NCBI GenBank assembly: GCA_964346655.1
Contig: CAYFVP010000055.1
Location: forward strand, 5,028 to 69,027
Origin: an uncultured Thermoplasmatales archaeon
GTDB lineage: Archaea > Thermoplasmatota > E2 > DHVEG-1
Direction: 5' to 3'
DNA length: 64,000 bases
Below the pieces are notes generated by a model that saw nothing but the letters and a program-made list of their open reading frames with translations, had not been told where the DNA came from and searched no databases. Positions 1-48,721 of the stretch are shown in pieces (position 1 is the first letter of the stretch; each line of letters begins with the position of its first letter). The translations under genes were made by a program, and so were the position numbers.

Positions 1-585
1 AAAAGAGAGCGTATTAACAATTTCTTGGATGAGGAAAGAGATTATAGTGGAAACATCTCCGTATTACATCTTCTGGAATTTTTACGGGACGAAATTGGAT
101 TCGATAAGGTCAAAGACAAGGTTAAGAGGCCATTAAATGGCTTGAAGTTGTCCTCTTACTATGGTTGCCTTTTGTTGCGACCAGACGGCATAGGAATAGA
201 TGACATTGAAGCTCCAAGGGTAATGGAGAACCTTCTCGAGGCTTTGGGCGGCGAGGTGGTTGAAAGTCCATTTAAGATCGAATGTTGCGGCTCATACCAC
301 ACTGTTGATGATATCGAACCTGTAGTCGAGCGAACAAAAATTATAATCGACGCTATTAGTTCTAGGGGAGCAGAAGCCATTGTTGTTGCTTGCCCATTAT
401 GCTTTTTCAATCTAGATTATCGCCAAAAAAATGTGGAGTTGAAAAACAGAGTTTTCACTAGGATTCCGGTTTTTTATTTTACTCAACTTTTGGCAGTCGC
501 GTTGGGATTAGGCGACGATGTCTGTGATTTCGACCTTAATTATGTAGATCCACGACCTCTTTTAGTTAAAAAGAGATTGATTTAA
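1..585 (+). CDS. HdrB/SdhE/TfrB-like CCG-domain iron-sulfur protein (C-terminal part; frame open to window start, so probably 5'-partial)
   Basis: CCG cysteine-rich motif (ECCGSYH ... VVACPLCFFN); the frame has no stop back to position 1, and the first in-frame start is a TTG at 25. Confidence 0.55.
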   Translation, partial: KRERINNFLDEERDYSGNISVLHLLEFLRDEIGFDKVKDKVKRPLNGLKLSSYYGCLLLRPDGIGIDDIEAPRVMENLLEALGGEVVESPFKIECCGSYHTVDDIEPVVERTKIIIDAISSRGAEAIVVACPLCFFNLDYRQKNVELKNRVFTRIPVFYFTQLLAVALGLGDDVCDFDLNYVDPRPLLVKKRLI

Positions 586-603
586 AAAGAGAAATGATGA
601 AAA

Positions 604-1395
604 ATGAATAAAACAGGTCTTACTAAAGAAGGACATCCGGTGGATCCTCTGCTTAACACAGAATCAATACCATCTGGATGGTGTTCAGGCTGTGGAATTG
701 GCATGGTGGTCAATACCTTTGTTCAGGCAGTCAATAAAATGGATCTTGATGCTAAAAATATACATATAGTTTCGTCGGGTATCGGTTGCACAGGAAAGAT
801 TGACCAGCATTTAAGCTTTAAATCAGATAAGATAACCGATAGTAACGTAATTGCCTACGCAACAGATTTAGCAGCTAAAAAACCATATATAAAAGCGGTT
901 CTCTTCTTAAACGACACCGATTTCATTGCATCAAATATAGACGATTTTATAAAAGCTGGAAAGAAAGGAGCAAGAATCGTTGTGATATACATAAACAACT
1001 ACATCTATCGGATTTTTATGGAATGTAAAGGCCTGTCACAAACCCCATTTTTAAAAGAATCATCTAAAGATAAAATCGTATCCCCATTCAATATACCACA
1101 CTTAGCTAAATTGAGTGGTGCCGATTATATTGCAAGATGGACGCAATTACATATTCGTAGACTCATGTTTTCAATAAAAGATGCGCTTTCAACAGAGGGC
1201 TTTTCTGTGATCGAGGTTATAGCACCCTGCTTGATGTATTATATTAACACTATAAATTTAGGGAAAACGATTGATAGAATGGGGTTTTTTGAGGAAACTT
1301 CGATTATAAAACATCGCGAACCGACAGAGAATCTTGATCTTAGAAATCAGAAAGAGATCATAGTTGGAAGATTTGTGTGGAGGGAAGAGAATTGA
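604..1395 (+). CDS. KorB/PorB-like 2-oxoacid:ferredoxin oxidoreductase beta-subunit homolog, TPP-binding motif degenerate (paralog 1)
   Basis: WCSGCGIG, SGIGCTGK, YIARWT and IEVIAPC blocks align to the genuine KorB in this window, but GDGD is replaced by NDTD and YGMTGGQ is lost. Confidence 0.6.
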   Translation: MNKTGLTKEGHPVDPLLNTESIPSGWCSGCGIGMVVNTFVQAVNKMDLDAKNIHIVSSGIGCTGKIDQHLSFKSDKITDSNVIAYATDLAAKKPYIKAVLFLNDTDFIASNIDDFIKAGKKGARIVVIYINNYIYRIFMECKGLSQTPFLKESSKDKIVSPFNIPHLAKLSGADYIARWTQLHIRRLMFSIKDALSTEGFSVIEVIAPCLMYYINTINLGKTIDRMGFFEETSIIKHREPTENLDLRNQKEIIVGRFVWREEN

Positions 1396-2189
1396 GTGGA
1401 ACTAATATAACAACAGTAAGTCGCAAAGGACAACACCCAATCAATTCTTTTTTTTCACCAGATTTAATGCCATCTGTTTGGTGTCCAGGTTGTGGAATAG
1501 GTACAATTATATATACATTCGTTCAGGCAGTCGAAGAGATAAACGCTGATCCAGACAAAATATGTATAGTATCTGGCATCGGTTGCACAGGAAAAATTGC
1601 CATGTACTTGAATTTTGGTTCACATGAAACAACTGAGGGCAATGTAATTGCTTATGCCGCAGACTTGGCGGCTAAAAAAAAGGATATAAAGATAATTGTC
1701 TTTACAAATAATGCTGACTTTCTTTTATCCAGTAAAAAAGATTTTCTTGACATTGGAAAGAAAAGGACGAATCTTCTTGTGATACATATTAACAATATTA
1801 TATATTGCATTACAGAAAACAAAGCTATTCCAACATCACCATTCCTAAGAGCATCTTCCGATAATAATTTTGAGTTGCCATTCAACATTCCTCATTTAGC
1901 GAAATCGAGTGGGGCGGGGTATGTTGCACGATGGACACCACTCCGCGCAGGATGGTTGAAGTATTCAATTATTGAGGCCCTTTCAATGCGAGCCCTATCA
2001 GTAATTGAAGTGGTATCGCCTTGTATAGAGTATTATACATTTACAAATAAAATTGGAGATGCAGCTGATCGATTAAAGTTCTATAGTGATAATTCAGTAA
2101 TGAAACAATACGAACCTACTAAACACCTTGATCTCAGGTCTCAAAGCAAGGTCATTATAGGTAAGTTTGTAGATAAAAATGAGGGTTGA
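1377..2189 (+). CDS. KorB/PorB-like beta-subunit homolog, TPP-binding motif degenerate (paralog 2)
   Basis: WCPGCGIG, SGIGCTGK, YVARWT and IEVVSPC are conserved; GDGD is replaced by NNAD; overlaps the upstream paralog by 19 nt. Confidence 0.6.
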   Translation: MEGRELSGTNITTVSRKGQHPINSFFSPDLMPSVWCPGCGIGTIIYTFVQAVEEINADPDKICIVSGIGCTGKIAMYLNFGSHETTEGNVIAYAADLAAKKKDIKIIVFTNNADFLLSSKKDFLDIGKKRTNLLVIHINNIIYCITENKAIPTSPFLRASSDNNFELPFNIPHLAKSSGAGYVARWTPLRAGWLKYSIIEALSMRALSVIEVVSPCIEYYTFTNKIGDAADRLKFYSDNSVMKQYEPTKHLDLRSQSKVIIGKFVDKNEG

Positions 2190-2425
2190 ATAATCTTATG
2201 ACAGCCGAGATTCACATAATAAATGAACGATGCAAAGGATGCAAAATCTGCGTGGAAGTTTGTCAGACAAAAGTGTTAGATATAACCAAAGAGCCCAATC
2301 CTAGTGGATATAATCCTCCCTATGTTAAAAACCTTGAAGATTGCACCATTTGTGGACTTTGCGAAATGCTTTGCCCAGACTTTGCTATCCAAGTCTCTTA
2401 TATAGAGGAAGAAGATAATCTATGA
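2186..2425 (+). CDS. 2x[4Fe-4S] ferredoxin
   Basis: CKGCKICVEVCQ and CTICGLCEMLCP motifs; overlaps neighbours by 4 nt. Confidence 0.75.
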   Translation: MNNLMTAEIHIINERCKGCKICVEVCQTKVLDITKEPNPSGYNPPYVKNLEDCTICGLCEMLCPDFAIQVSYIEEEDNL

Positions 2426-3252
2426 AGCATACGATAACCCGTAAAGAAGCTCTAAACTCAGAGGATTTTTTAGTCGAAGTCAAAGCACCCTTAGTATCAA
2501 AAAAGTTTAAAGCCGGCCAATTTTTGATTTTGAGAATTCATGAAAAAGGCGAAAGGGTCCCACTGACTATCACTGATTGTAATCCAGAAAAAGGATTGGT
2601 AAGCATGATTGTTAAGGCAGTCGGAAAGACCACATTTGAATTGAGAAAGCTGGATAGAGGCAACTCTGTATTAGATATTGTCGGTCCTTTAGGCAATCCT
2701 TCCGAAATCGAGCAATTCGGAACTGTCGTTTGTGTCGGTGGCGGAACCGGAATCGCCTGTCTCTATCCCATCATCAAAGCCCTAAAAGCGGCTGGCAATT
2801 ATGTAATTACTATAATCGGTGCTAGAACCAAAGATAAATTGATTTGGGAGGATGAAATAAAGACAATTTGCGATGATATGATTGTAACTACTGATGACGG
2901 ATCATATGGTCATAAAGGCATTGTAACAGAATCATTGGAGGAGATACTAAAGAGTAAAACTGTCGACAGGGTAATAGCAATAGGCCCAATGATTATGATG
3001 AAATTTGTTGCTAAGATGACCAAGTCATATGGTGTAAAAACGGTGGTCAGTTTAAACACTATAATGATAGATGGTACAGGTATGTGCGGCGGATGTCGTG
3101 TATTTGTCGATGGCAAAATGAAATTCACGTGTATAGATGGACCGGAATTTGACGGACATAAGTTAAACTTTGATGAATTAATGAATCGACTAGACATGTT
3201 TAAAGAAAAAGAGAAACAAGCAATAGAACATTACAAAAGAGGTACAAAATAA
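2422..3252 (+). CDS. NfnA/SudB/PyrK-like FAD/NAD-binding oxidoreductase subunit with C-terminal 2Fe-2S (GMCGGCRV)
   Basis: ferredoxin-NADP reductase-like fold, GGGTGIA nucleotide motif, C-terminal CGGC cluster. Confidence 0.6.
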   Translation: MKHTITRKEALNSEDFLVEVKAPLVSKKFKAGQFLILRIHEKGERVPLTITDCNPEKGLVSMIVKAVGKTTFELRKLDRGNSVLDIVGPLGNPSEIEQFGTVVCVGGGTGIACLYPIIKALKAAGNYVITIIGARTKDKLIWEDEIKTICDDMIVTTDDGSYGHKGIVTESLEEILKSKTVDRVIAIGPMIMMKFVAKMTKSYGVKTVVSLNTIMIDGTGMCGGCRVFVDGKMKFTCIDGPEFDGHKLNFDELMNRLDMFKEKEKQAIEHYKRGTK

Positions 3253-4646
3253 TGGTAGATATAGGTGGAACTCGTATTCCAATGCGAGAGCAGCCGGTTC
3301 AAGATCGGATAAAAAATTTTCACTCCGTGCCGTTCGGCTACAACAAGGAAGAGGTGGTAGAAGAGGCACAGAGATGTATGATGTGTAAGCATGCCCCGTG
3401 TGAGATTAGCTGCCCAGTCCATCTGAAGATCAAGGCTATGATAAGAAAGATTGCCGAACGCAATTTTAAGGAAGCGTTTCTAATTGCTAAGCAGGATAAT
3501 CCAATCCCTGCAATCACAGGACGGGTTTGTCCGCAGGAAGATCAGTGCGAAGGTGTTTGTCCATTGGCAGAGACAAAAAACGGCATAAACATTGGTAAGT
3601 TGGAAGCATTCATAGCCGATTGGGCCATGGAACAAGGGATTACCGAGAAATTTCACATCAAGAATAGAGCAGAAAAGGTTGCAGTAATAGGTTCTGGACC
3701 TGCAGGCATTAGTTGTGCCGTGGACCTCCGTAAATTCGGTTATCAGGTAAAGATATTCGAGGCACTTCACAAAGCAGGCGGAGTACTCCAATACGGCATC
3801 CCAGCTTTTCGTTTGCCTAAGGATATTGTGGACTATGAGTTATCGTATCTAAAGGAAATAGGAGTAGATATACAGCTTAATAATATAATAGGACAAAACA
3901 TAAAGTTTAGTGAATTGCGTGATAACTTTGATGCAATTTTCATTGGTACAGGTGCAGGTGCCCCCCTGTTTGTAGGTATGGATGGAGAGAAACTCAATGG
4001 TGTTTATTCGGCCAACGAGTTTCTCATACGGGTAAATCTGATGAAAGCCTATAATTTCCCTAAACATGATACACCTATCGTTTGCGGAGATGAAGTGGGT
4101 GTTATCGGGGCAGGAAACGTTGCAATGGATGCTGCCAGATGCGCCCTTAGACTTGGTGCAAAGAATGTGTATATTTTATATAGAAGAACGAAACGAGAAT
4201 CACCAGCTAGGGATGAAGAATTACAACACGCACTTGAAGAGGGAATAATTTTCAAGGAATTAATTGCACCAACAAGGGTTTTGGGCAACAAAGAGGGTTG
4301 GGTGATAGGGATAAAACTGGCTAAAATGAAGCTTGGTGAACCTGATAAAAGCGGCCGCCCCAGACCCATAAAGATCGAGAATAGTGAGTTTACCATGAAA
4401 TTAGATACAGTTATAGAGGCTCTAGGATCCAGACCAAACAGGCTCTTTCTGGATAGAACACCTGAATTGGAAAGAAACAAATGGGGTGTGTTGGTAGTCG
4501 ACAAGGATCTTAATACGAATATAGGAGGAGTCTCTGCGGGTGGTGATGCGATAAGTGGTGGTGCTACCGTAATTCTCGCACTTGGAGAAGGAAGAGCAGC
4601 AGCAAAATCTATCCATAAATACTTATCAAAGGGGGATGATAAATGA
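3252..4646 (+). CDS. NfnB/SudA/GltD-like NAD(P)H-dependent FeS flavoprotein (glutamate synthase small-subunit family)
   Basis: N-terminal 4Fe-4S cysteines, two Rossmann GxGxxG/A motifs (VAVIGSGPAG, VGVIGAGNVA). Confidence 0.7.
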   Translation: MVDIGGTRIPMREQPVQDRIKNFHSVPFGYNKEEVVEEAQRCMMCKHAPCEISCPVHLKIKAMIRKIAERNFKEAFLIAKQDNPIPAITGRVCPQEDQCEGVCPLAETKNGINIGKLEAFIADWAMEQGITEKFHIKNRAEKVAVIGSGPAGISCAVDLRKFGYQVKIFEALHKAGGVLQYGIPAFRLPKDIVDYELSYLKEIGVDIQLNNIIGQNIKFSELRDNFDAIFIGTGAGAPLFVGMDGEKLNGVYSANEFLIRVNLMKAYNFPKHDTPIVCGDEVGVIGAGNVAMDAARCALRLGAKNVYILYRRTKRESPARDEELQHALEEGIIFKELIAPTRVLGNKEGWVIGIKLAKMKLGEPDKSGRPRPIKIENSEFTMKLDTVIEALGSRPNRLFLDRTPELERNKWGVLVVDKDLNTNIGGVSAGGDAISGGATVILALGEGRAAAKSIHKYLSKGDDK

Positions 4647-4945
4647 CGTCATTACAAGCCGCATTTGGTGCAGATAAAATCGAGATACCTTTAGGTAAAG
4701 TCCATATAGTTAAGGATAGGTGTAAAGGGTGTGGTTACTGTATAAAATATTGTCCAAGAGAGGTTTTGGAGGTTTCAGACAAGCTAAATAATAAAGGATA
4801 TTATTTTCCTCAAGTGAAAGATGAAGATACCTGCCTTAACTGTGGTCTCTGTGAACTAATTTGTCCAGAATTTGCTATTTGGTCTACATTAGAGGGGTAT
4901 ATAAAACCGAAATTGACGAAGGTGGTGGTTAATGAATCCCCCTAA
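4643..4945 (+). CDS. 2x[4Fe-4S] ferredoxin
   Basis: CKGCGYCIKYCP and CLNCGLCELICP. Confidence 0.75.
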   Translation: MTSLQAAFGADKIEIPLGKVHIVKDRCKGCGYCIKYCPREVLEVSDKLNNKGYYFPQVKDEDTCLNCGLCELICPEFAIWSTLEGYIKPKLTKVVVNESP

Positions 4946-6929
4946 ATCCGAGCCGGCAATTGGTATATTCATATGTCACTGCGGAAAGAACATCGCAACT
5001 ACCGTCGATGTTGATGAGGTAACACAGAACGTGGCAGGGCTTGAAGGTGTAGTATTTGCCGAGAATTATAAGTATATGTGTTCCGAACCAGGTCAAAAAT
5101 TGATACGCGATACGATTCGCGATAAGCGATTGACAGGGGTTGTAATCGCCGCATGTTCACCTCGCCTCCATGAAGTTACTTTTCAGCAGACCGTAGCTGC
5201 AGCAGATTTAAATCCATATCTATGTGAGATAGCTAATATCCGTGAGCAATGCAGCTGGGTGCATAAGGATAAAGAAAAGGCGACGAAAAAGGCTATTAAG
5301 ATAACTAGATCATTAGTGGAAAAGGTTAAACTCAACGACGTCCTCACACCGATTAGCATCCCTGTTATCAAAAAATGCCTGGTCATTGGAGCTGGGATAA
5401 GCGGGATGCAAGCTGCACTCGATATAGCTGACGCGGGTTTTAAGGTTATCCTAGTTGAAAAGAACTCATCGATTGGAGGGCACATGGCACAACTTTCCGA
5501 AACCTTCCCTACTCTCGATTGCTCGCAATGTATACTCACACCCAAGATGATGGAGGTTGGAAACCACCCAAATATCGAGTTATTAACTTATTCTGAAGTC
5601 GTAGAGGTCAACGGATATATTGGTAATTTCAATGTCAAGGTGAAAAAGAAACAAAGATATGTGGATATCGATAAATGTACTGGCTGTAATGAATGTACCA
5701 ACGTCTGCCCCGCTGTAGTCCCTAGTGAATTCGACGAAGGGCTTGGTTTGAGAAAGGCAATATATCTCCCCTTTCCACAAGCAGTGCCTCAAGCTTATGT
5801 TTTGGATGATCAAGCCTGCCTCGGCTTGCTTCCATTAGCATGTAGTAAGTGTATGGATGTCTGCGAGCCCGGTGCGATAGATCTAGATCAACATCCTGAA
5901 TATTTGGAAGTTGAGGTCGGCACGATTATTGTTGCTACTGGATACGAACTTCTACCAAAGGAGAATATAGGTGAGTACGGGTATGGAACATACAAAGACG
6001 TAGTCAATGGATTGCAATTTGAGCGGTTATTATCTGCTTCTGGCCCAACGTTTGGCGAGATTAGGAGGCCTTCTGATGGTAGGATCCCTAAAGAAGTTGT
6101 GTTCGTACAATGTGTTGGTTCTCGGGACCCAGAACATAGTATGCCTTATTGTTCCAAGATCTGTTGCATGTATACTGCCAAACACGCAAAGCTCTACAAA
6201 CATGCGGTTCCTGATGGTCAGGCATATGTTTTTTATATCGACATCCGCTCTGCTGGGAAGGGCTATGAAGAATTTGTGCAACAGACCATCGAAGAGGAAG
6301 GGGTCATATATTTGAGGGGCAAGGTCTCAAGAGTCTTCCGTGATGAAAAGGAAGATAAAATGATTGTCTGGGGTGTAGATACCCTTACAGGCAAGAAGAT
6401 AGAAATCGCAGCAGATATGGTGGTTCTTGCAATGGCATTGGTTCCAAGCGAGGGTATTAAGGAGCTTACTAAAAAATTGAAGATTTCAATGGACACATTT
6501 GGATTTATTACTGAAGCACATCCCAAACTGAGGCCCATCGACACTGCCACCCGAGGTATATTCCTGGCTGGTTGCAATCAAGCTCCAAAGGATATTCCAG
6601 ATACTGTTGCCCAGGCATCAGGAGCAGCTGCTAAGGCGTCGATACCGCTTCTGCAGGGAAAGATTGAACTTGATCCCCAAACCTGTACTGTAAATGAAGA
6701 TATGTGTAGTGGATGTGGAATGTGTGAATCCATATGCGGGTATGACGCTATTGAAATAATAGATGATCCGAACCATCCAAAAAAGAAAATAGCTAGAGTC
6801 AATGACGTACTATGCGAGGGTTGCGGTTCTTGTGCAGGAGCATGCCCAGCAGGTGCAATGGAACAGAAAGGATTCAAAAGCAATCAACTTCATGCGATGA
6901 TAGATGTATTTTTAACTAAAGGAGGATAA
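4932..6929 (+). CDS. hdrA: heterodisulfide reductase subunit A (HdrA) family FAD/FeS protein
   Basis: N-terminal CHCGxNI cysteine cluster, VIGAGISGMQAALD FAD motif, LDCSQCILTPKM, inserted ferredoxin domain; typical length of 665 aa. Confidence 0.8.
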   Translation: MNPPKSEPAIGIFICHCGKNIATTVDVDEVTQNVAGLEGVVFAENYKYMCSEPGQKLIRDTIRDKRLTGVVIAACSPRLHEVTFQQTVAAADLNPYLCEIANIREQCSWVHKDKEKATKKAIKITRSLVEKVKLNDVLTPISIPVIKKCLVIGAGISGMQAALDIADAGFKVILVEKNSSIGGHMAQLSETFPTLDCSQCILTPKMMEVGNHPNIELLTYSEVVEVNGYIGNFNVKVKKKQRYVDIDKCTGCNECTNVCPAVVPSEFDEGLGLRKAIYLPFPQAVPQAYVLDDQACLGLLPLACSKCMDVCEPGAIDLDQHPEYLEVEVGTIIVATGYELLPKENIGEYGYGTYKDVVNGLQFERLLSASGPTFGEIRRPSDGRIPKEVVFVQCVGSRDPEHSMPYCSKICCMYTAKHAKLYKHAVPDGQAYVFYIDIRSAGKGYEEFVQQTIEEEGVIYLRGKVSRVFRDEKEDKMIVWGVDTLTGKKIEIAADMVVLAMALVPSEGIKELTKKLKISMDTFGFITEAHPKLRPIDTATRGIFLAGCNQAPKDIPDTVAQASGAAAKASIPLLQGKIELDPQTCTVNEDMCSGCGMCESICGYDAIEIIDDPNHPKKKIARVNDVLCEGCGSCAGACPAGAMEQKGFKSNQLHAMIDVFLTKGG

Positions 6930-6932
6930 AAC

Positions 6933-7631
6933 ATGCCTAAAGACAAAAAAATGATTCCAATATATATTACCGGAAAAAAATATCTAGTCCCATATGGCCT
7001 AACCATTATGAAAGCAATGGAATATGCAGGTTATCGGTATATAAGAGGCTGTGGCTGTCGAGGTGGTTTCTGTGGCGGATGCGGGACTGTTTATAGATAT
7101 AAGGGCGACTACAAGCTTCAATCAGGTCTTGCATGTCAGACCATAGCAGAGGAGAACATGTATTTGGTCCAGATTCCGTTTTTTCCTGCAAATAAAGCTA
7201 ATTATAATTTAGATGAACTTAAGCCAGTAGGTAGCACACTCCTTAAATTATACCCTGAGCTAGCTAGATGTATTAGTTGCAATACTTGTACTAAAGTTTG
7301 CCCACAAGATATAGAGGTAATGGACTATATGCAGGCCGCACTTAAAGGTGACATCACAAGCGCCGCGGATGTATCATTCGATTGCATAATGTGCGGGTTA
7401 TGTGCAGCTCGATGTCCCGCTGAGATTGTGCAGTATAACATTGCGATACTTTGTCGTCGTTTGTATGGCAAATATATGACACCAAAAGCAGAGCATGTTA
7501 AGATAAAAGCAGCTGAAATTTCTGAGGAAAAATTCGATAAAGAACTAAAAAAACTTATGAAATCCGATATTAAGACACTTAAAAAATTGTATAATGAACG
7601 TAAAATAGAACCTGAGGAGAGTAAGAGGTAA
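6933..7631 (+). CDS. succinate dehydrogenase/fumarate reductase iron-sulfur subunit-like (FrdB/SdhB/HdrC-like)
   Basis: N-terminal 2Fe-2S-type cysteines (CGCRGGFCGGC...C), then CISCNTCTKVCP and CIMCGLCAARCP. Confidence 0.55.
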   Translation: MPKDKKMIPIYITGKKYLVPYGLTIMKAMEYAGYRYIRGCGCRGGFCGGCGTVYRYKGDYKLQSGLACQTIAEENMYLVQIPFFPANKANYNLDELKPVGSTLLKLYPELARCISCNTCTKVCPQDIEVMDYMQAALKGDITSAADVSFDCIMCGLCAARCPAEIVQYNIAILCRRLYGKYMTPKAEHVKIKAAEISEEKFDKELKKLMKSDIKTLKKLYNERKIEPEESKR

Positions 7632-7636
7632 CGAAC

Positions 7637-9256
7637 ATGTACACCAAAGATATGATAGATTCAATAAATCGCCTGAAGGAAACTCGTAGTAAAAGGATGA
7701 AGCAAGAGTTACCTTTTTTAACTTCTGAAGAGAAATATGATTTATTAAATAGATTCCATCCTGATTATAGAAAAGGGACTTTAAGAGAGCTAAAAATCGG
7801 TCCTAATAAAGGAGAGAGAGTGATACAAGAAATCGCCAACTTATTTGAAGCCTATAGCAAAATCGATCCCAATAATTTCGATATTTCAAAAATAGATTAT
7901 GACGCTGATGTTCTTGTAATCGGAGGGGGCGGTGCTGGTGCTTCAGCGGCTTTGATTGCTCAAGAGAATGGTGCGAATGTTTTGTTAGCTACCAAACTTC
8001 GATTTGGTGATTCGAATACAATGATGGCCCAAGGTGGAATTCAGGCTGCAGATAAACCGAACGACTCTCCATCCATACATTACTTAGACGTGGTTGGTGG
8101 TGGTGGATTCGATAATACGCCAGAATTAGTAAATGCTTTGGTTCGAGATGCACCTGAGGCTATTGCATGGCTCGAGGACCTTGGCGTTATGTTTGATAAA
8201 AAGAGTGATGGAACTATGATCACGATCCATGGTGGCGGCACTTCTAGAAAGAGAATGCATTCTGCTAGAGATTACACAGGTGGCGAGATAATGAAAACTT
8301 TACGGGATGAGGTCAAAAATCGGGGCATAGATGTTATTGAGTTTTCACCTGCAATCGAACTTTTAACTGATGATGGGAAATGTACAGGTGCAATATTATA
8401 TAATCTTGAGACTAATGAATATATTATAGTTCAAGCAAAAACAACTATTCTTGCTACGGGTGGTGCAGGCAGATTACATGTCCAAGATTTTCCAACATCC
8501 AACCATTACGGCGCAACAGCTGATGGATTAGTTATAGCATATCGCGCAGGCAATCCTGTCATCTTCATGGATAACATTCAATACCATCCAACAGGAGCAG
8601 CCTTTCCCGAACAAATCGTCGGTCTTCTCGTCACTGAGAAATGTAGGGGACTGGGTGCACAATTGGTAAATAACGATGGAGATAGATTCATTTATGAACT
8701 CGAAACAAGAGATATTGAATCTGCAGCCATAATTAAAGAATGTATCGAGAGAAAAAAAGGAATTAAAACACCAACTGGCATATTAGGTGTTTGGCTCGAT
8801 ACGCCCATGATCGAGATCATTCATGGGAAAGGTACAATCCAAAAGAAACTACCAGCCATGTACAGACAATATCAACGTTTCAATATAGATATGAGTAAAG
8901 AACCACTCCTTGTTTATCCGACCCAACACTTTCAGAATGGTGGGATAATTGTCAATGAAAAGGCTGAGACAAAGGTTGCAAACTTGTATGGGGCTGGAGA
9001 AGTCGAAGGCGGTGTTCACGGACGTAACAGATTAATGGGTAACTCGTTATTGGAATGCATCGTATTTGGGAGACGCGCAGGTAAGAACGCTGCTCAGAAA
9101 GCAAAAGAAATCGAGTTTAGAAAACTTACACTTCAGCATATCCAGAAATATCATATAGAATTAAAAATGGCAAATATAGCAGAGGATATAACGTCACCTA
9201 TGCTCTTACCAGATTATCGGCGAAATGAGACAATCGCAAGAATGATTGATATTTGA
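7637..9256 (+). CDS. fumarate reductase/succinate dehydrogenase flavoprotein subunit-like (FrdA/SdhA/TfrA family)
   Basis: VIGGGGAGASAAL FAD motif; C-terminal RLMGNSLLECIVFGRRAG block typical of this family. Confidence 0.75.
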   Translation: MYTKDMIDSINRLKETRSKRMKQELPFLTSEEKYDLLNRFHPDYRKGTLRELKIGPNKGERVIQEIANLFEAYSKIDPNNFDISKIDYDADVLVIGGGGAGASAALIAQENGANVLLATKLRFGDSNTMMAQGGIQAADKPNDSPSIHYLDVVGGGGFDNTPELVNALVRDAPEAIAWLEDLGVMFDKKSDGTMITIHGGGTSRKRMHSARDYTGGEIMKTLRDEVKNRGIDVIEFSPAIELLTDDGKCTGAILYNLETNEYIIVQAKTTILATGGAGRLHVQDFPTSNHYGATADGLVIAYRAGNPVIFMDNIQYHPTGAAFPEQIVGLLVTEKCRGLGAQLVNNDGDRFIYELETRDIESAAIIKECIERKKGIKTPTGILGVWLDTPMIEIIHGKGTIQKKLPAMYRQYQRFNIDMSKEPLLVYPTQHFQNGGIIVNEKAETKVANLYGAGEVEGGVHGRNRLMGNSLLECIVFGRRAGKNAAQKAKEIEFRKLTLQHIQKYHIELKMANIAEDITSPMLLPDYRRNETIARMIDI

Positions 9257-9565
9257 TGTACATTATGTATGGGTTATATGCTTATTTTAATAAAATTCTA
9301 GTATTACTAAATACGATCAGATGCTTAATCATAAATCTCCGCGATTTCAGAATATTTAATATATTTTTATCTTCCGTGAATTTGTACAACTTTCAAAGCC
9401 AGCAGATATAGCTATTGCTACAAAACATATATGAATCTCAGGTTTTAAGAATAACATTTAAATGAAAAAAAGAATAGCAAATTTAACATATAGTGATAAT
9501 ATACGGGGTCTAAATAGTTACACAATGAAACAGAATCATATAAGATATAGGAGTATAAGAATAAC

Positions 9566-10726
9566 ATGGAATACAATTTTGAGGACAGTGATCCTGCAAA
9601 ACGGAAATTTTGGCAGGGAAATATAGCAACAGCTGAAGGTGCTATTGATGCTGGTTGCCGTTTCTTTGCAGGTTATCCAATTACTCCTTCATCTGAGATT
9701 TTACATCATCTTTCTAATAGATTGCCTCAAATTGGCGGTGTATGTGTTCAAATGGAAGATGAAATCGCATCTCTGGGTGCTGTTATTGGAGCTAGTTGGG
9801 CCGGAGTAAAAGCAATGACTGCAACATCTGGTCCTGGTTTTTCATTGATGCAGGAAAACATTGGTTATGCTGTTATGACAGAGACACCTTGTGTGATTGT
9901 TGATGTGATGCGTGTCGGACCGAGCACAGGACAGGCAACTCTAGCTAGTCAGGGAGATGTATATCAAGCACGGTATGGATCGCATTGTGCAGATTATGAA
10001 ATTATCACAGTGGTTCCAAGTTCTGTAAAAGAAAGCTATGAGCTAATTATACAAGCTTTTAATCTTGCTGAGCAATATCGTACACCAGTTATTTTTCTTT
10101 CTGATGGACATTTATCACGCATGAGTGAAACATTTGAAATACAAGAGAAACAGCTTATTATAAATAGAAAAAAACCAACACATAAAGGCGAATCTATTTT
10201 TGGGTCTATTTATGACAGCGAGCTTGTTCCACCTATGCCTTCTTTAGGCGAAGGATATAATGTTTTGGTCACAGGTAGCACGCATGATATTAGGGGATTT
10301 AGAGACACTTTAAATGGAGAAATCCATAGAAAACTAATGCATCGTCTTGTCAAAAAAATAATTCATAATAGAGAGAAAATCATTAAAATCGAGGAAAATA
10401 AACCTGAAGACACAATAATTGGAATTATTAGTTATGGATCTGTTTCAAGAGCTGTCTGGGAGATGCAAGAATTAGCTGAAAAGGAGAATATAAAGCTGGC
10501 TCACTTAAGGCTAATTACTCTCTGGCCTTTCCCAGATGAAAAAGTAAAATCATTTTTAAGCGGACTAAAACATGTGATCGTCCCTGAGCAAAATTCTGGT
10601 TTAATTGTTAGAGAAATTGAGAGATGTACGAATGGAAATACAGATGTTCATTCATTATCAAAAATTGGTGGAGGAGAACCCATTACCCCTAGTGAATTAT
10701 TGGATTTAGTAGTGAGTTTATCATGA
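9566..10726 (+). CDS. korA: 2-oxoacid:ferredoxin oxidoreductase alpha subunit
   Basis: family-typical blocks GYPITPSSEI, TSGPGFSLM and VMRVGPSTG. Confidence 0.8.
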   Translation: MEYNFEDSDPAKRKFWQGNIATAEGAIDAGCRFFAGYPITPSSEILHHLSNRLPQIGGVCVQMEDEIASLGAVIGASWAGVKAMTATSGPGFSLMQENIGYAVMTETPCVIVDVMRVGPSTGQATLASQGDVYQARYGSHCADYEIITVVPSSVKESYELIIQAFNLAEQYRTPVIFLSDGHLSRMSETFEIQEKQLIINRKKPTHKGESIFGSIYDSELVPPMPSLGEGYNVLVTGSTHDIRGFRDTLNGEIHRKLMHRLVKKIIHNREKIIKIEENKPEDTIIGIISYGSVSRAVWEMQELAEKENIKLAHLRLITLWPFPDEKVKSFLSGLKHVIVPEQNSGLIVREIERCTNGNTDVHSLSKIGGGEPITPSELLDLVVSLS

Positions 10727-11454
10727 TCGAGGAAATATATGACAAATTTTTGCGGGTGACTCCAAAATTCTGCATGGGTTGTGGAAATGAAAAAGTAGTT
10801 GATTCTTTGATCCTTGCTATTGATAATTTATATGGTTCAATGGAAGGTTTTGTATTTCTAAGTGGTATTGGTTGTGCAGCATGGATACCAAGTCCTCATT
10901 TTAAAGCAGATACTATACATACAACACATGGGCGTCCAATAACTTTTGCAACTGGGATTAAACTAGCAAATCCTAATTTAAAAGTAGTGGTCATAAGTGG
11001 AGATGGAGACCTTGCTGGAATAGGTGGTAATCACCTTATTCATGCAGCTAGGAGAAACCTTGAGATTACGGTGATTTGCGTAAATAACCTAGTCTATGGT
11101 ATGACTGGTGGTCAATTTAGTCCTACAACACCTCGTGGGGCTATTACAAAAACAACATTAAAGGGTAACCTAGAGTATCCTTTTGATCTAGCAAGATTGG
11201 TAGCAAATGCAGGAGCCTCATATGCTGCTAGATGGACTACCGTTCATAAAACAGAACTCCAAAGTTCTATTGAAAAGGCATTGAAAAAAGGGCAAAAAGG
11301 ATTTGCTTTTATTGAAGTAATCTCACCGTGCCCTACACAATTCACACGTCGGAATCTTAAAGCCTTTCAGACAATAAAAAATCAACTAAATTTTGGAGAG
11401 TTCATTGATGTTGAACGGGACGGTTTTGCAGAGAAATTTCGAAAAAGTATTTGA
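10723..11454 (+). CDS. korB: 2-oxoacid:ferredoxin oxidoreductase beta subunit (intact TPP site)
   Basis: SGIGC, GDGD...NN TPP/Mg motif, YGMTGGQ, YAARWT, IEVISPC. Confidence 0.85.
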   Translation: MIEEIYDKFLRVTPKFCMGCGNEKVVDSLILAIDNLYGSMEGFVFLSGIGCAAWIPSPHFKADTIHTTHGRPITFATGIKLANPNLKVVVISGDGDLAGIGGNHLIHAARRNLEITVICVNNLVYGMTGGQFSPTTPRGAITKTTLKGNLEYPFDLARLVANAGASYAARWTTVHKTELQSSIEKALKKGQKGFAFIEVISPCPTQFTRRNLKAFQTIKNQLNFGEFIDVERDGFAEKFRKSI

Positions 11455-11531
11455 GATAATCATTCAATGGGGGTGAAACTATAAGGATCAAAATTTTAAT
11501 CGCTGGTAATGGAGGGCAAGGAATAATTCTT

Positions 11532-12002
11532 ATGGGAAATATAATTGGTACAGCCGCTACTCTCCATGGGTTGTTTGCAACCCAAGTTAGTACCTATGAT
11601 GCTTCACAGCGTGGCATGCTTGTTCATACTGATATAATTATTTCAAATGAACCTGTTAAGTTTGCTTTTGTAAATAAACCAGATTTCTTTATAGTCATGA
11701 CTCCTCAAGGATTTAATGAGTTCAGTAAAAGGATGGGTGAAGATACATTAGTTTTTATTAATTTGGATCGTATGAATGACTTTAAATTGAATTACCCAGG
11801 AAAAATTATTTCATTACCCGCATCAGAAATTGCAAAAGAAATAGGAAACCCTATTGGAGCAAATTTTGTGATGCTGGGGAAATTTTTGTCAACCACTCAA
11901 ATTATACCATTAGAGATTGTTGAAAAAGCAATAAAACAAAATATACCAGAAAAATTAATAATGAAAAATCTAGAAGCTGTGAGAATAGGAAGTACTATTT
12001 AA
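11532..12002 (+). CDS. korC: 2-oxoacid:ferredoxin oxidoreductase gamma subunit; the conserved N-terminus (IKILIAGNGGQG) lies upstream of the first in-frame start, so an apparent frameshift
   Basis: gamma-subunit GxGGQG motif is encoded in-frame at 11472-11531 but has no start codon; an ATG at 11467 is in another frame across a G5 run. Confidence 0.7.
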   Translation: MGNIIGTAATLHGLFATQVSTYDASQRGMLVHTDIIISNEPVKFAFVNKPDFFIVMTPQGFNEFSKRMGEDTLVFINLDRMNDFKLNYPGKIISLPASEIAKEIGNPIGANFVMLGKFLSTTQIIPLEIVEKAIKQNIPEKLIMKNLEAVRIGSTI

Positions 12003-12283
12003 CTCTAAACATTATACGATCACAAGTCATCTATTTACCACGATTCTCTGCTTCGCTGCAAACTTCTATTACTCTTTCTTTTAAATTGGTAGATTATTTA
12101 AAATCTGCAGCTATAAAATATTTCATAGAAAGTGTTGCCGCCTTTGTTGAAAAAACTAGTTTAAAATGATAAAAAAATTGGTTAAAACAAATGACTGTAA
12201 AACTTTAGAAACATTTATCTATTTAGCCTAACATCGCCATCTTAGGTTTGGCAATCATTAATTGCTTATCTGGGGGAGCAATA

Positions 12284-13066
12284 ATGAAATATGAAACCCT
12301 TGAAATACAAATAGAAAAAGATGTTGCAACAGTGTTTCTTAATAGACCAGAAGTTCACAATGCAATGAATGAAAAATTAATGAAAGAATTAACTGCATGT
12401 TTTAAAAAATTTACCATTGATCAAAGTATTAGAATTATAATTTTAACTGGTAAAGGTAAATCATTCTGCGCTGGTGCCGATCTAAACTGGATGAAAAGCA
12501 TGGCTAAATATGATAAAAATGAAAATATTAAGGATAGTCGGCTTTTATCAAATCTTTTTGAATCAATTTATAATTGTCCAAAACCTGTTATTGCCAGAGT
12601 AAATGGTCATGCTTTTGGTGGTGGATTAGGTTTATTTGTTGTATGTGATATAGTAATTGCTATATCAAATTGTAAGTTTGCGTTTAGTGAGGTAAAACTT
12701 GGAATCATTCCTTCTGTAATCTCAACATATATTGTAAGAAGGATAGGTCTTGCTAATATGAGAAGGCTTTTTGTAACAGGAGAGAGATTCAACTCAGATT
12801 ATGCGCAAAATATTGGTCTAATAGATTTTGTTGTTTCCGAAGATGAATTAAATGATAAAGTCAAGAAATATATTGAATTATTACGATCTTCTGGTCAAAT
12901 TGCAATTAAAGAAGTAAAAAAATTAGTAGATGCATGTGAAAATATGAATAGAAAAGATTATATCGAGTATACAATAAACAAGATTGCAGAACTTAGAGTA
13001 TCTAAAGAAGGACAAGAAGGTATAAATGCTTTTCTTGAAAAAAGAAAACCCGATTGGAGTGGATAG
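12284..13066 (+). CDS. enoyl-CoA hydratase/crotonase family protein
   Basis: crotonase blocks (GKGKSFCAGADL, NGHAFGGGLGL); GGGGGAG SD before the ATG at 12284. Confidence 0.75.
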   Translation: MKYETLEIQIEKDVATVFLNRPEVHNAMNEKLMKELTACFKKFTIDQSIRIIILTGKGKSFCAGADLNWMKSMAKYDKNENIKDSRLLSNLFESIYNCPKPVIARVNGHAFGGGLGLFVVCDIVIAISNCKFAFSEVKLGIIPSVISTYIVRRIGLANMRRLFVTGERFNSDYAQNIGLIDFVVSEDELNDKVKKYIELLRSSGQIAIKEVKKLVDACENMNRKDYIEYTINKIAELRVSKEGQEGINAFLEKRKPDWSG

Positions 13067-14574
13067 TTATTTTCAAAAAAATCCTTATTGCCAACCGTGG
13101 AGAAATTGCCGTCAGAATCATTAAAGCATGCCAGGAAATGGGTATTAAAACTGTTGCAATTTATTCTAATGTTGATAATAATGCTCCTCATGTTCAACTT
13201 GCTGATGAAACTATAAATTTAGGCGATCCAACTCCTATTGAAAGTTATTTAAATATTTCAAAAATTATTAAGATTGCCCAAGATGCTGGAGCAGAAGCAA
13301 TTCATCCGGGTTATGGTTTTCTTGCTGAAAATCCTGATTTTGCCAAATCCTGTAATGATATAGATATCAAGTTTATTGGTCCAAGCCCTGAGGTTATTAG
13401 TCTCATGGGCGATAAAATTGTTGCAAAAACAAAAATGGAAAATGCAGGTGTTCCAGTAATTCCAGGATATCATGGTGATGCTCAAGATAGCTCGTCCTTA
13501 ATAAATGTAGGTAAAAAAATTGGTTTTCCACTTCTAGTTAAAGCTGCAGCAGGTGGTGGTGGAAAAGGGATGAGAATTATATATTCTCAGGACCTTTTAG
13601 AAGAATCAATTGAAAGTGCAAAGCGTGAATCAAAATCTTCATTTGGTAATGACACAGTTTTTCTTGAAAAATATATTGATAAACCCAGACATATTGAGTT
13701 TCAAATTCTTGCAGATGAATATGGCAATACTATTCATCTCTTTGAAAGAGAATGCTCTATTCAAAGAAGGCATCAAAAGATAATCGAAGAAACACCATCT
13801 CCTGTTGTTACATCTGAACTTCGTAAAAAAATGGGAGATGCGGCAGTAGCTGCTGCAAAAGCAGTAGGCTATACAAATGCTGGAACTGTCGAATTTATGG
13901 TTGATGGTAATCTGAACTTCTATTTTATGGAGATGAATACTCGTCTTCAAGTGGAGCATCCCATTACTGAAATGACTACAGGTATTGATCTTGCCAAGTG
14001 GCAATTGAAAATTGCCAGTGGAGAAAAATTAACTATAAAACAAAATGATTTATTTCAAAGAGGTCATGCAATTGAATGTCGAATTTATGCAGAAGATCCT
14101 TCTAATGGTTTTCTTCCTAGTGTTGGAACTATTGGAAAAGTTGAAGCTACAACTGGACCTAATATCAGAAATGATACAGGAATATATTCTGGTATGGAGG
14201 TTACCTCATACTATGATCCGATGCTTGCAAAACTTATAACATATGCAGAAAATAGACTTGATAATATTAACAAGATGATATGGGCTCTTTCTCATTATAT
14301 CATTCTTGGAGTTACCACAAATATATCCTTTCTAAAAGAAGTTCTTGGCCATGTTGAATTTAAAAAAGCAAACATTACAACACATTTCATAGACAATTAT
14401 TTTCAAGATTGGACAGTTACAAAAAATGGTTTACCTATCGATGCGATTATTGCACTTGCAGTATACGATTCTATGCACTCAAAATCCCAAGAAATTGTAA
14501 GATACAAAGAAGCTGATCCTCATTCACCATGGAAGCATGTAGGTAGATGGCGAGTTGGTGGAAGGGAGGTGTAA
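13054..14574 (+). CDS. accC: biotin carboxylase subunit of acetyl/propionyl-CoA carboxylase (archaeal split type)
   Basis: ILIANRGEIAVR, ATP-grasp GGGGKGMR, EMNTRLQVEHPITE. Confidence 0.85.
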   Translation: MEWIVIFKKILIANRGEIAVRIIKACQEMGIKTVAIYSNVDNNAPHVQLADETINLGDPTPIESYLNISKIIKIAQDAGAEAIHPGYGFLAENPDFAKSCNDIDIKFIGPSPEVISLMGDKIVAKTKMENAGVPVIPGYHGDAQDSSSLINVGKKIGFPLLVKAAAGGGGKGMRIIYSQDLLEESIESAKRESKSSFGNDTVFLEKYIDKPRHIEFQILADEYGNTIHLFERECSIQRRHQKIIEETPSPVVTSELRKKMGDAAVAAAKAVGYTNAGTVEFMVDGNLNFYFMEMNTRLQVEHPITEMTTGIDLAKWQLKIASGEKLTIKQNDLFQRGHAIECRIYAEDPSNGFLPSVGTIGKVEATTGPNIRNDTGIYSGMEVTSYYDPMLAKLITYAENRLDNINKMIWALSHYIILGVTTNISFLKEVLGHVEFKKANITTHFIDNYFQDWTVTKNGLPIDAIIALAVYDSMHSKSQEIVRYKEADPHSPWKHVGRWRVGGREV

Positions 14575-14578
14575 ATAG

Positions 14579-15073
14579 TTGTTTATAAATTACGAGCATG
14601 AAAACCATGTTTTCAATGTTACAATTGAACACAAGGATAATTATTATTTTGTTATTTATGATAATACAGAATACAAGGTAGAAGCTGAGGAAATAAAACC
14701 AGGGCAATTGAAAATAAAGATTGGTGATAGAACAGTTAAATCAATTATTACAGAAGGTAATAAAGAAAAATATATTTTTATCGATGGAGCAGTTTTCAAA
14801 GTAAAACCTGTGGAACTTACTGGCCTTAAAAAACAAAAGAAAAAAGATAAAGGCGATCTTGGTTCACCAATATCTGGAAAGGTTGTAAGTGTTAAGGTAA
14901 AAAATGGTGATTCTGTCAAAAAAGGTGATGTTTTAATGATTATTGAGGCCATGAAAATGGAGTATCTTATAAGAGCCCCTTATCCTGGAGTTATAAAAAA
15001 GATAAATTTTAAAGAAAATGAACAAATTGAAATTGGACAGGTTACATTAGAACTCTTTAAAAAGGGAGGATAG
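14579..15073 (+). CDS. accB: biotin carboxyl carrier protein
   Basis: biotinyl-lysine motif IEAMKMEY near the C-terminus; TTG start directly after the accC stop. Confidence 0.8.
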   Translation: MFINYEHENHVFNVTIEHKDNYYFVIYDNTEYKVEAEEIKPGQLKIKIGDRTVKSIITEGNKEKYIFIDGAVFKVKPVELTGLKKQKKKDKGDLGSPISGKVVSVKVKNGDSVKKGDVLMIIEAMKMEYLIRAPYPGVIKKINFKENEQIEIGQVTLELFKKGG

Positions 15074-15077
15074 GTAA

Positions 15078-16685
15078 ATGGATGTTATTGAAAGTAATAT
15101 TGATTCATCTAGTAAGGAGTTTATTGATAATTACAAACATTATGAACTTTTAGTTAAAGATTTAAAGCAAAAAATTTCACAGTTTCAAATGGGTGGTGGT
15201 GAAGAAAAAATAAGGCTTCATAAATCAAGAAATAAAATGCTTGCCCGTGAAAGAATTGAAGCATTAGTTGATCATAATACACCCTTTATGGAATTTAATC
15301 CCCTTGCTGGTTTTGATATGTATAATAATAAAGCACCATGTGCAGGCATTGTTACAGGTATTGGTTTAATACATGGCCGTGAGGTAGTAATTATTGCAAA
15401 TGATGCAACTGTTTCTGGTGGAACGTATTATCCAATGACTGTTAAAAAACATCTTAGAGCTCAAGAAATTGCCCTAACTAACAATTTACCTTGTATATAT
15501 TTGGTAGATTCTGGTGGAGCATTTTTACCGATGCAAGATGAAGTTTTTCCTGATAGAGAGCATTTTGGTAGAATTTTTTATAATCAAGCTGTAATGTCAG
15601 CAAAAGGTATTCCACAAATCTCTTCCGTTATGGGTTCTTGCACTGCTGGAGGTGCGTATGTTCCAGCAATGTCAGATGAAACAATTATTGTAAAGGGAAC
15701 TGGAACAATTTTTTTAGGTGGTCCTCCTCTTGTAAAGGCAGCTACTGGTGAAGAGGTTTCTTCTGAAGATTTAGGTGGAGCAGATGTTCATTGTAGAGAA
15801 AGTGGTGTGTCTGATCATTATGCCCATAATGATACAGAGGCAATTCGCATGCTTAGAAATATTGTTGAAAATCTTAATCGCCCAGAAAAAACTCAACTTG
15901 ATGTTAGAAAACCTGAAGAGCCTAATTATGATATTAAAGAAATTTATGGTGTTATTCCAAAAGACTTGAGAAAACCTTTTGATGTACGAGAGATACTTGC
16001 TAGAGTTATTGACGGTTCAAAGTTTCATGAGTTTAAGTCTCTTTATGGTAAAACAATTGTTTGTGGTTTTGCACGAATTATGGGTTATCCTGTAGGGATT
16101 TTGGCTAATAACGGAGTTCTTTTTTCTGAATCTGCTTTGAAGGGATCACACTTTATTGAGGTATGTTGCCAACGAAAGATACCACTTGTTTTTTTCCAAA
16201 ATATCACTGGTTTTATGGTTGGTAGAAAATATGAAGCAGGTGGCATTGCAAAGGATGGTGCAAAGATGGTTAATGCAGTTGCAACTGCAAATGTTCCAAA
16301 GTTTACTGTTATTATTGGTGGGTCTTTTGGTGCTGGAAACTATGGAATGTGTGGTAGGGCCTATCAACCTAGACAGTTATGGATGTGGCCCAATGCCCGA
16401 ATATCAGTGATGGGTGGTGAGCAAGCAGCTAATGTTCTTTTAACTGTAAAACGTGATCAGCTTTGGAGGAAAGGAAAAGAGCTTACCAAAAAGGAGGAAA
16501 AGGAAATCACAGAGCCCATTTTAAAAAAGTATGAAAAAGAGGGGAATCCATATTATAGTACAGCTAGAATCTGGGACGAGGGTATCATTGATCCTATTGA
16601 TACAAGAATGGTTCTGGGTCTAGGAATTTCTGCCTCTCTTAACGCTCCAATTCCTGATTGGAAGCCTGGAGTATTTAGAATGTAA
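15078..16685 (+). CDS. pccB: acyl-CoA carboxylase carboxyltransferase (beta) subunit
   Basis: carboxyltransferase N and C domains; 535 aa. Confidence 0.85.
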
Positions 16686-48169: not shown

Positions 48170-48394
48170 ATAATTATTACATAAAAATTATCAAGAGCTC
48201 AATTAAAAAAATCTATTTTTTTTTAAATTTTATATATTTAATTTTTTTTAAAACAAATTTTTTTAACAACATTTTTGTTTGGTTTTTTCCGAACATAGTA
48301 GTATAATATATAAACTATAAAAATGCTTCTTATTCGAATCTTGATACATAGGACGACATGAAATCACATAGAAATTCCATTGGTAGTAGAAATC

Positions 48395-48535: not shown

Positions 48536-48721
48536 TTTTTGTTGAAAAAATTAAAAAAATATTTTAAAAAAGTTTATTTTCTAGTTATTTTTAATAAATA
48601 GTAATTATATTTATTTGAAGATAAAATTTAATTTTTAATAATAAGATTTATATATGATATATAGAGGTAAAAGTTATATACACTAATTGTCATATGATAA
48701 AATATAAGAGGGGGATAGAAA

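Follow-up and report, generated by a model that had tools for sequence, protein, structure and literature searches.

What becomes of an oxidoreductase subunit that keeps its iron–sulfur ligands while its cofactor site is dismantled? The question is raised by two adjacent forward-strand genes in a 64,000-nucleotide stretch of DNA (hereafter, the window) from an uncultured Thermoplasmatales archaeon (assembly GCA_964346655.1, contig CAYFVP010000055.1, positions 5,028 to 69,027). Their products, KBL1 (604..1395, 263 residues, N-D-x-D type) and KBL2 (1377..2189, 270 residues, GTG start, N-N-A-D type), are KorB-like paralogs encoded by open reading frames (ORFs) that overlap by 19 nucleotides, and source annotations read "2-oxoglutarate ferredoxin oxidoreductase subunit beta", "thiamine pyrophosphate-dependent enzyme" or "hypothetical". 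The initial annotation of this DNA proposed that the pair derives from KorB, has lost the site for thiamine diphosphate (ThDP) and Mg, and has been repurposed as a non-catalytic electron-transfer or scaffold subunit of an Hdr/Nfn/Frd operon. Here we describe a conserved module in which the KBL pair is encoded together with a small ferredoxin and the bifurcating flavoprotein NfnAB. We favour, at what we consider about an even chance, a role of the pair as a ThDP-independent Fe-S wire or docking module on the low-potential branch of Nfn.

Homology was assigned using Pfam and NCBIfam profiles, together with BLASTP and phmmer comparisons to the other window proteins and to PDB chains. The window also encodes a bona fide KorB carrying GDGD..NN (10723-11454, forward strand), which served as our internal reference. 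By BLASTP, KBL1 and KBL2 share 49% identity (E 6e-90), and they are 32% (E 2e-27) and 27% (E 1e-28) identical, respectively, to the window KorB; on these sequence grounds the relationship is one of true homology rather than chance, and the derivation from KorB proposed in the initial annotation stands. The match to established families is distant. Pfam TPP_enzyme_C is hit weakly by KBL1 and KBL2 (35.8 and 28 bits, cut-off 21.9) as compared to 117.5 bits for the window KorB, and every NCBIfam KorB/PorB model is matched far below its cut-off, for example TIGR02177 (82 and 111 bits, cut-off 261.9) and PRK09628 (102 and 132 bits, cut-off 364). The best solved relatives by sequence are beta chains of 2-oxoacid:ferredoxin oxidoreductases (OFORs), namely Helicobacter pylori OorB (8ys5_C, phmmer E 1e-28), the Sulfolobus tokodaii enzyme StOFOR (5b46_B/5b48_B) and the M. 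marinus 2-oxoglutarate:ferredoxin oxidoreductase MmOGOR (6n2n_B). An AlphaFold2 model of KBL2 (pLDDT 84.7, pTM 0.85) retrieved the same group from the PDB with Foldseek, the top matches being 8ys5_C, 5b46_B and 6n2n_B, with a TM-score of 0.71 to 8ys5_C. No natural fusion of KBL1 with KBL2 was found among the best 150 representatives, in which the long hits are GDGD-bearing KorBs with KorG-like, KorA-derived or low-complexity extensions.

We verified the motifs of both proteins by translation and by alignment to the window KorB and the solved OFOR beta chains. The blocks SGIGC, Y[IV]ARWT and IEV..PC are present in both paralogs, which can be aligned block for block with KorB as initially described. 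The cysteine-bearing motifs are WCSGCGIG (679-702), GIGC (778-789) and APC (1222-1230) in KBL1, and WCPGCGIG (1479-1502), GIGC (1575-1586) and SPC (2016-2024) in KBL2, providing four candidate cluster ligands in each protein (C27, C30, C62 and C209 in KBL1; C36, C39, C70 and C216 in KBL2). These align with Cys19/22/53/202, the ligands of the proximal cluster in H. pylori OorB (PMC12307629), and with Cys12b-Cys15b of the CXGC motif in StOFOR (PMC5020499). The ThDP/Mg2+ motif of StOFOR consists of Gly-Asp-Gly at 89b-91b and, further on, Asn118b (PMC5020499). At the positions of GDGD, KBL1 carries NDTD (910-921) and KBL2 carries NNAD (1707-1718), while the NN that follows is kept in both (994-999 and 1791-1796). 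The YGMTGGQ loop has become YRIFMECK in KBL1, with a one-residue insertion, and YCITENK in KBL2. The possibility that the GDG is merely shifted was rejected: GDG occurs nowhere in the translation of either protein, and NDTD and NNAD lie without gaps under GDGD in hidden Markov model alignments. Among the defining features of the OFOR beta family, the four cysteines and the fold are thus present in the KBL proteins, and NDT or NNA stands in place of GDG.

To describe the loss across the family, we took the columns that are at least 85% conserved in 68 GDG-type KorBs and compared them in 136 KBL family members. The four cluster cysteines are conserved in 100% of the latter, and both KBL clades also keep WCxGCGIG, SGIGCxG, the second Asp of GDGD (100%), NN, the next Tyr, ARWT and E..PC. 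Replaced in both clades, mostly by variable or acidic residues, are the two Gly of GDG, HTTHGR, IGGNH..H..RRN and MTGGQ, all of them at least 85-100% conserved in the GDG-type KorBs, as well as R209/N211 of the window KorB; a three-residue loop is deleted in both. We infer that HTTHGR, GGNH..H..RR and MTGGQ normally line the diphosphate/substrate site. Judged from these alignments, the ThDP cradle is dismantled well beyond GDG and YGMTGGQ. The former metal site tells a different story. The Asp that aligns with the Mg ligand Asp90b of StOFOR is Asp in 98% of KBL1 and Asn in 97% of KBL2 sequences; the surrounding positions are N103 (95%), D104 (98%), D106 (100%) and N131 (100%) in KBL1, and N111 (94%), N112 (97%), D114 (100%), N139 (100%) and N140 (99%) in KBL2. 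The second Asn of NN, equivalent to Asn118b, is retained in 99% of KBL2 and 84% of KBL1 sequences, with S, G or T in its place in some bacterial KBL1. In addition, each clade has fixed residues of its own: E140 (86%) and K142 (95%) in KBL1, and R158 (96%) in KBL2. The proposed loss of a joint ThDP/Mg site therefore needs to be divided. Loss of the canonical ThDP site is well supported by the alignments and is wider than was claimed, whereas the Asp/Asn positions of the Mg site appear only partly changed, KBL1 keeping the ligand Asp and both proteins keeping NN, and they are among the best conserved of the family.

Two genes that have lost catalytic motifs in both copies could be decaying pseudogenes or annotation artefacts, that is, korB duplicates drifting after loss of function, and in one metagenome scaffold (L004) KBL1 is indeed split. 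We consider this explanation very improbable. As compared to their orthologs in a second Thermoplasmatales locus (L005), KBL1 and KBL2 have dN/dS values of 0.149 and 0.182, similar to those of the flanking hdr and nfn genes (0.06-0.13), which confirms the purifying selection inferred in the initial annotation. The ORFs are intact in all other loci examined, in archaea and bacteria alike, the genes are translationally coupled within an operon, and GDG is missing and the cysteines are present in all 117 full-length sequences from the best 120 clusters (90% identity). The split in L004 falls at an A10 homopolymer (9530-9545), where KBL1 is divided into two ORFs; an indel introduced by sequencing or assembly is the probable cause, not a true frameshift. 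Pseudogenes were ruled out by the dN/dS values, the intact orthologs and the homopolymer at the sole split copy. What remains is a combination of cofactor-residue loss and purifying selection, as would be expected of a pseudoenzyme.

We next asked how the GDG-less proteins are related to each other. For this, 205 sequences were aligned: the three proteins from the window, KorB-family ORFs from 80 genomic loci, and the top-scoring hits of a search in 5.8 billion proteins. Neighbour joining, with the window KorB as root, placed the 137 GDG-less sequences in a single clade and 65 GDGD-bearing KorBs in its sister group. The clade divides into a KBL1 subclade (n = 43, N-D-x-D) and a KBL2 subclade (n = 93, N-N-A-D), a single KBL1 from WOR-3 falling outside both. 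Since the two paralogs form separate subclades, the duplication must have taken place before the pair spread through archaea and bacteria. The GDGD KorBs retrieved with the KBL profile are 36-48% identical to KBL2 and are mostly encoded in clusters of the Hdr/Kor/Tfr type discussed below.

The gene neighbourhood shows with whom the pair travels. ORFs of each locus were sorted by BLASTP against the window proteins, and called genes were inspected in further contigs. In every GDG-less locus, as far as the contig extends, the order is KBL1-KBL2-2x[4Fe-4S] ferredoxin-(MvhD/FlpD)-NfnA-NfnB. The carriers are Thermoplasmatales (the window and its source contig L001, L005, L085), Cloacimonetes (L002, L003), an Aminicenantes/Acidobacteriota-type group (L006-L010, L015, L086, L087), WOR-3 (L021 and the P0112 contig) and the metagenome scaffold L004, to which no lineage is assigned, amounting to about five lineages at phylum level. 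When flanks were compared all against all, KBL1, KBL2, the ferredoxin, NfnA and NfnB were the only genes common to all lineages. In L086 and L087, the five form an isolated operon flanked by unrelated genes, in which stop codons overlap the start codons that follow; in L002-L004 the operon additionally contains the optional MvhD/FlpD polyferredoxin of 400 amino acids. In the window, the KBL pair is followed on the same strand by Fd79 (2186..2425; gene-caller start 2198), a small ferredoxin of the OFOR delta-subunit type with two CxxCxxCxxxC motifs, whose best NCBIfam match is OGOR_delta (60 bits, below cut-off). NfnA (2422..3252) scores 412 bits with PRK06222 (cut-off 220) and 333 bits with Pyrococcus furiosus NfnI (5jca_S). 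NfnB (also NfnL; 3252..4646), the large subunit with the bifurcating FAD, scores 552 bits with TIGR01316 (cut-off 471.75), 530 bits with 5jca_L and 526 bits with Thermotoga maritima 4ylf_B. By these scores, the window NfnA and NfnB are bona fide proteins and close orthologs of the structurally characterised NfnI. The conserved partners of the KBL pair are thus a delta-type ferredoxin and NfnAB, not Hdr or Frd: the Hdr/Nfn/Frd operon of the initial annotation is found in the window, but its Hdr and Frd components are not universal across lineages.

The same comparison bears on whether the KBL proteins still serve an OFOR. KBL1, KBL2 or both might be regulatory or variant beta subunits that pair with the downstream KorA (9566-10726) or with another alpha subunit. 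The idea draws on the window and L085, whose gene string includes KorA-KorB-KorG as well as the pair, and on the sister-clade KorBs, which lie mostly in Hdr/Kor/Tfr clusters. We nevertheless regard it as improbable. No KorA (POR_N) gene is adjacent to the pair in any locus, and in Cloacimonetes, the Aminicenantes group, WOR-3 and L004 (four of the five lineages), as well as in L005, the roughly 10 kb around the pair contain no such gene. The Thermoplasmatales window and L085 have a korA some 7 kb downstream of the pair, and it comes with a GDGD KorB of its own, which in the window is intact and joined to KorA by overlapping stop and start codons; the low KBL scores against all curated KorB/PorB models point the same way. 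The lack of an alpha subunit near the pair in most lineages effectively excludes a partnership with KorA. One short contig of a Stahlbacteria metagenome-assembled genome (L018, 1473-5287) encodes a GDGD KorB with a KBL-type C-terminal tail, followed by NfnA, an AsnC-type gene and an NfnB-like gene, with a DUF4258 gene upstream of KorB where KorA would be; this arrangement may be an intermediate or a rearrangement.

How, then, might the module work? In OFORs, ThDP is bound at the alpha/beta interface and electrons pass from ThDP to the proximal cluster in beta and on to the medial and distal clusters in delta, with spacings of 10-13 Å (PMC12307629), and the Glu that activates ThDP is supplied by the alpha subunit (PMC5020499). 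We posit that KBL1 and KBL2 are ancient duplicates of the beta (PP-domain) subunit of a four-subunit 2-oxoglutarate:ferredoxin oxidoreductase of the OorDABC type, which would have retained the site of the proximal [4Fe-4S] cluster and the association with a delta-type 2x[4Fe-4S] ferredoxin, and would have lost the alpha (PYR-domain) partner along with most of the ThDP/substrate cradle. With both of these gone, ThDP-dependent 2-oxoacid chemistry by the pair is not expected. The conserved, translationally coupled gene order suggests that KBL1, KBL2, delta and NfnAB form a five-subunit redox complex. Its predicted cofactors are one [4Fe-4S] cluster in each KBL protein, two in delta, two plus FAD in NfnB, and [2Fe-2S] plus FAD in NfnA, such that KBL1, KBL2 and delta together would bring four [4Fe-4S] clusters to the co-translated NfnAB. 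They would sit on the low-potential, ferredoxin-side branch of NfnAB and may act there as a built-in low-potential acceptor, as a wire, or as a docking platform toward HdrA-type partners. In several lineages, the link to HdrA-type complexes could be made through the MvhD-like subunit or through nearby hdr genes. MvhD in methanogens is an adaptor that docks hydrogenase onto HdrA, and the window, L005, L085, L004, L021 and the P0112 contig have hdr genes no more than 10 kb away from the KBL pair. In the window, NAD(P)H would thereby be coupled to an Hdr-centred fumarate reductase/2-oxoglutarate oxidoreductase system.

Several characterised systems can be compared with the module. The KBL proteins share with OorB/KorB of four-subunit 2-oxoglutarate oxidoreductases (H. 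pylori OorDABC, 8ys5; S. tokodaii StOFOR, 5b46/5b48; M. marinus, 6n2n) the fold, the four Cys ligands, the blocks WCxGCGIG, SGIGCxG, ARWT and IEVxxPC, an OorB-type C-terminal tail and a neighbouring gene for a delta-type 2x[4Fe-4S] ferredoxin. They differ in having no adjacent alpha (PYR) or gamma subunit, in replacing GDG by N-D-x (KBL1) or N-N-A (KBL2), in occurring as a fixed pair of diverged paralogs encoded with NfnAB, and in scoring far below the family cut-offs. The NfnA and NfnB of the module are close orthologs of the chains of NfnI (5jca) and T. maritima Nfn (4ylf). Those enzymes consist of only two Nfn chains and use free ferredoxin, to which the KBL operon adds KBL1, KBL2, delta and, in some lineages, an MvhD-like polyferredoxin. 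A precedent for permanently joining an OFOR-type Fe-S/ThDP core to an NAD-linked flavoprotein is PadEFGHI, the NADH-dependent phenylglyoxylate dehydrogenase of Azoarcus. Pad, however, is a full alpha/beta/gamma/delta ThDP enzyme with a catalytic GDG, whereas the KBL module has neither alpha nor GDG; the Pad models (NCBIfam NF0457xx) gave weak hits only.

Several observations weigh against a simple wire or dock. Nothing in a pure electron conduit obviously calls for former Mg-site Asp/Asn residues conserved at 94-100%, nor for the fixed E140 and K142 of KBL1 and R158 of KBL2, and these residues could belong to a ligand site. Were delta to bind as in an OFOR, the KBL cluster would terminate the chain as a dead end beside the old pocket, unless some molecule is bound there or a partner from outside docks. 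Finally, no Hdr component is found within 10 kb in the stand-alone operons of the Aminicenantes-type group (L086, L087 and the rest).

The same observations can be read as signs of a remodelled active site. PYR and PP domains share one fold, and a KBL1:KBL2 heterodimer could therefore mimic a PYR:PP pair, with a site for a metal (Mg2+) or ligand built from N-[ND]-x-D and N-N; we hold this proposal tentatively, as possible but rather doubtful. Equally tentative is its functional extension, in which the site would bind ThDP in a non-canonical manner, or another cofactor or substrate, the ligand would undergo redox chemistry through the [4Fe-4S] cluster with low-potential electrons from the bifurcating FAD of Nfn, and the five-subunit complex would be an NAD(P)H-dependent enzyme. 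Beyond the conserved positions and the dead-end cluster, such a site is favoured by the two paralogs having been kept side by side since before the split of the archaeal and bacterial carriers, which suggests an obligate asymmetric heterodimer, and by the stand-alone five-gene operons, which suggest a self-sufficient enzyme. The His/Arg-rich pocket motifs HTTHGR, GGNH..H..RR and MTGGQ, however, have given way to variable or acidic residues, and the drift of the second Asn of NN in several bacterial KBL1 also speaks against it. Gene neighbourhoods also fail to name a candidate substrate: flank comparison revealed only lineage-specific synteny, with an ECF sigma factor, RadC and thiolase in the Aminicenantes group, an acyl-CoA dehydrogenase and ETF in L004, and a carboxyltransferase in Thermoplasmatales and Cloacimonetes. 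In its fullest form, the proposal describes a five-subunit bifurcating enzyme of the Nfn type in Thermoplasmatota, Cloacimonadota, Aminicenantes/Acidobacteriota and WOR-3, with a PP:PP pseudo-heterodimer whose former ThDP/Mg pocket has become a new cofactor or substrate site driven by the low-potential electron of the Nfn FAD, hence a new NAD(P)H-dependent low-potential reductase, or one working in reverse; this specific version we consider unlikely.

In the window operon, eleven genes, HdrC-HdrB-KBL1-KBL2-Fd79-NfnA-NfnB-Fd100-HdrA-FeS-TfrA, overlap or are at most 18 nucleotides apart, the string being complete in the source contig L001. The HdrB-like/SdhE-like CCG-domain protein (Pfam CCG; NCBIfam CoB_CoM_SS_B and MFR_anch_SdhE, below cut-off) is truncated by the window start, leaving its C-terminal part at 25..585, and has a full length of 291 amino acids in L001. 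Upstream of the window in the same contig lies an HdrC-like gene (L001 8317-9099, 260 amino acids), whose product has an N-terminal region followed by a two-cluster ferredoxin domain, an unusual arrangement for HdrC; the N-terminal region gives weak winged-helix matches (FUR weakly, Penicillinase_R, and Sta1 family with E 1e-5). Downstream of nfnB and on the same, forward strand follow Fd100 (4643..4945), a second delta-type 2x[4Fe-4S] ferredoxin of a kind found immediately 5' of KorA in canonical clusters, and an HdrA-like flavoprotein (4932..6929; NCBIfam HdrA2, 835 bits, below cut-off), which is outside the conserved five-gene core. Next comes a ferredoxin-type Fe-S protein (6933..7631) with a dicluster Fer4 and a weak N-terminal Fer2_4 domain; it is possibly the TfrB/SdhB counterpart, and its own counterparts accompany TfrA in Hdr/Kor/Tfr clusters. 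The string ends with a TfrA/SdhA-like fumarate reductase flavoprotein (7637..9256; Pfam FAD_binding_2, 270 bits; NCBIfam TfrA, 360 bits, below cut-off). After a gap of 310 nucleotides 3' of tfrA, the bona fide korA begins, and its partner korB is followed by korG (11532-12002, forward strand). The nearest named relative is a Thermoplasmatales archaeon metagenome-assembled genome with 80-86% amino-acid identity, one of whose two operon copies has the gene order of the window.

The surroundings of the module are those of a widespread cluster with the order HdrC-HdrB-delta ferredoxin-KorA-KorB-KorG-HdrA-(MvhD)-(Flx-like)-FeS-TfrA. We observed clusters of this type in the window (25-12002) and in L014, L017, L019-L026, L028, L030, L031, L036, L039, L044-L046, L049-L051, L053, L058, L060, L062-L064, L067, L069, L072, L074, L075 and L080, their carriers including Aminicenantes, Coatesbacteria, Planctomycetota, Nitrosomonadales, Gallionella and Alphaproteobacteria. 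The gene content suggests an Hdr-type coupling of fumarate reduction to 2-oxoglutarate synthesis. In tubeworm symbionts, korABCD and tfrAB are interspersed with flxABCD-hdrABC in a conserved arrangement, for which a complex shuttling electrons to 2-oxoglutarate oxidoreductase and thiol:fumarate reductase was proposed (Rubin-Blum et al. 2019, PMC6315080). The window resembles that cluster in its Hdr, delta-ferredoxin, KorABG and fumarate reductase (TfrA and Fe-S subunit) components. Three differences stand out: the genes for KBL1-KBL2-Fd-NfnAB form an insertion that separates hdrB from the delta ferredoxin, korABG has moved downstream of tfrA, and no Flx genes were seen in the window operon. 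This placement suggests that KBL/Nfn may act as the pyridine-nucleotide-linked module of this archaeon's Hdr system.

Hdr/Kor/Tfr-type clusters of WOR-3, Stahlbacteria and other uncultured bacteria (L011, L012, L013, L017, L019, L020) contain a second KorA'-KorB' pair. KorB' (for example L012 8098-8898 and L013 9328-10167) shows the opposite degeneration to the KBL proteins, having lost the Fe-S cysteines in the two loci that cover those regions, L012 and L013 (SGIGC to SDIPF, SPC to APG), and shortened GDG to GD while keeping HTT(R/H)GR and GGNH. The OFOR beta scaffold was apparently put to new use on more than one occasion.

On either side of the window operon (L001 1-8300 upstream; window 12248-16685) are genes for methylmalonyl-CoA mutase, an epimerase-type glyoxalase, thiolase, carboxyltransferase, biotin carboxylase with its carrier protein, and enoyl-CoA hydratase, jointly a succinyl-CoA/methylmalonyl-CoA/propionyl-CoA set. 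A homologous carboxyltransferase also lies beside the KBL module in the Cloacimonetes locus L003 and in L005. Elsewhere in the window, positions 48001-54000 have a GC content of 25-29% as compared to 32-42% in the rest, and neither tRNA genes (tRNA scan) nor Rfam matches were found across the whole 64 kb; a scan for promoters and terminators likewise yielded nothing informative.

No published description of the KBL1-KBL2-Fd-NfnAB module was found in the searchable literature. The module is apparently undescribed, while the Hdr/Kor/Tfr cluster that surrounds it here is already known (PMC6315080). In several uncultured phyla of anaerobes from sediments and digesters, it occurs in a fixed association with NfnAB. 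Flavin-based electron bifurcation holds a central place in how anaerobes balance their energy, and to our knowledge few module types feed or drain bifurcating flavoproteins. If the KBL pair is a wire or dock, the Fe-S half of an enzyme would have been recycled as a low-potential adaptor between bifurcating modules, from Nfn to Hdr, and in these archaea the Hdr/Kor/Tfr system could by that route be coupled to NAD(P)H. Should the pocket instead be a new active site, the module would be a new enzyme. Either way, current annotations of KBL proteins mislead metabolic reconstruction, for example when the capacity for the tricarboxylic acid cycle or its reductive counterpart is inferred from them.

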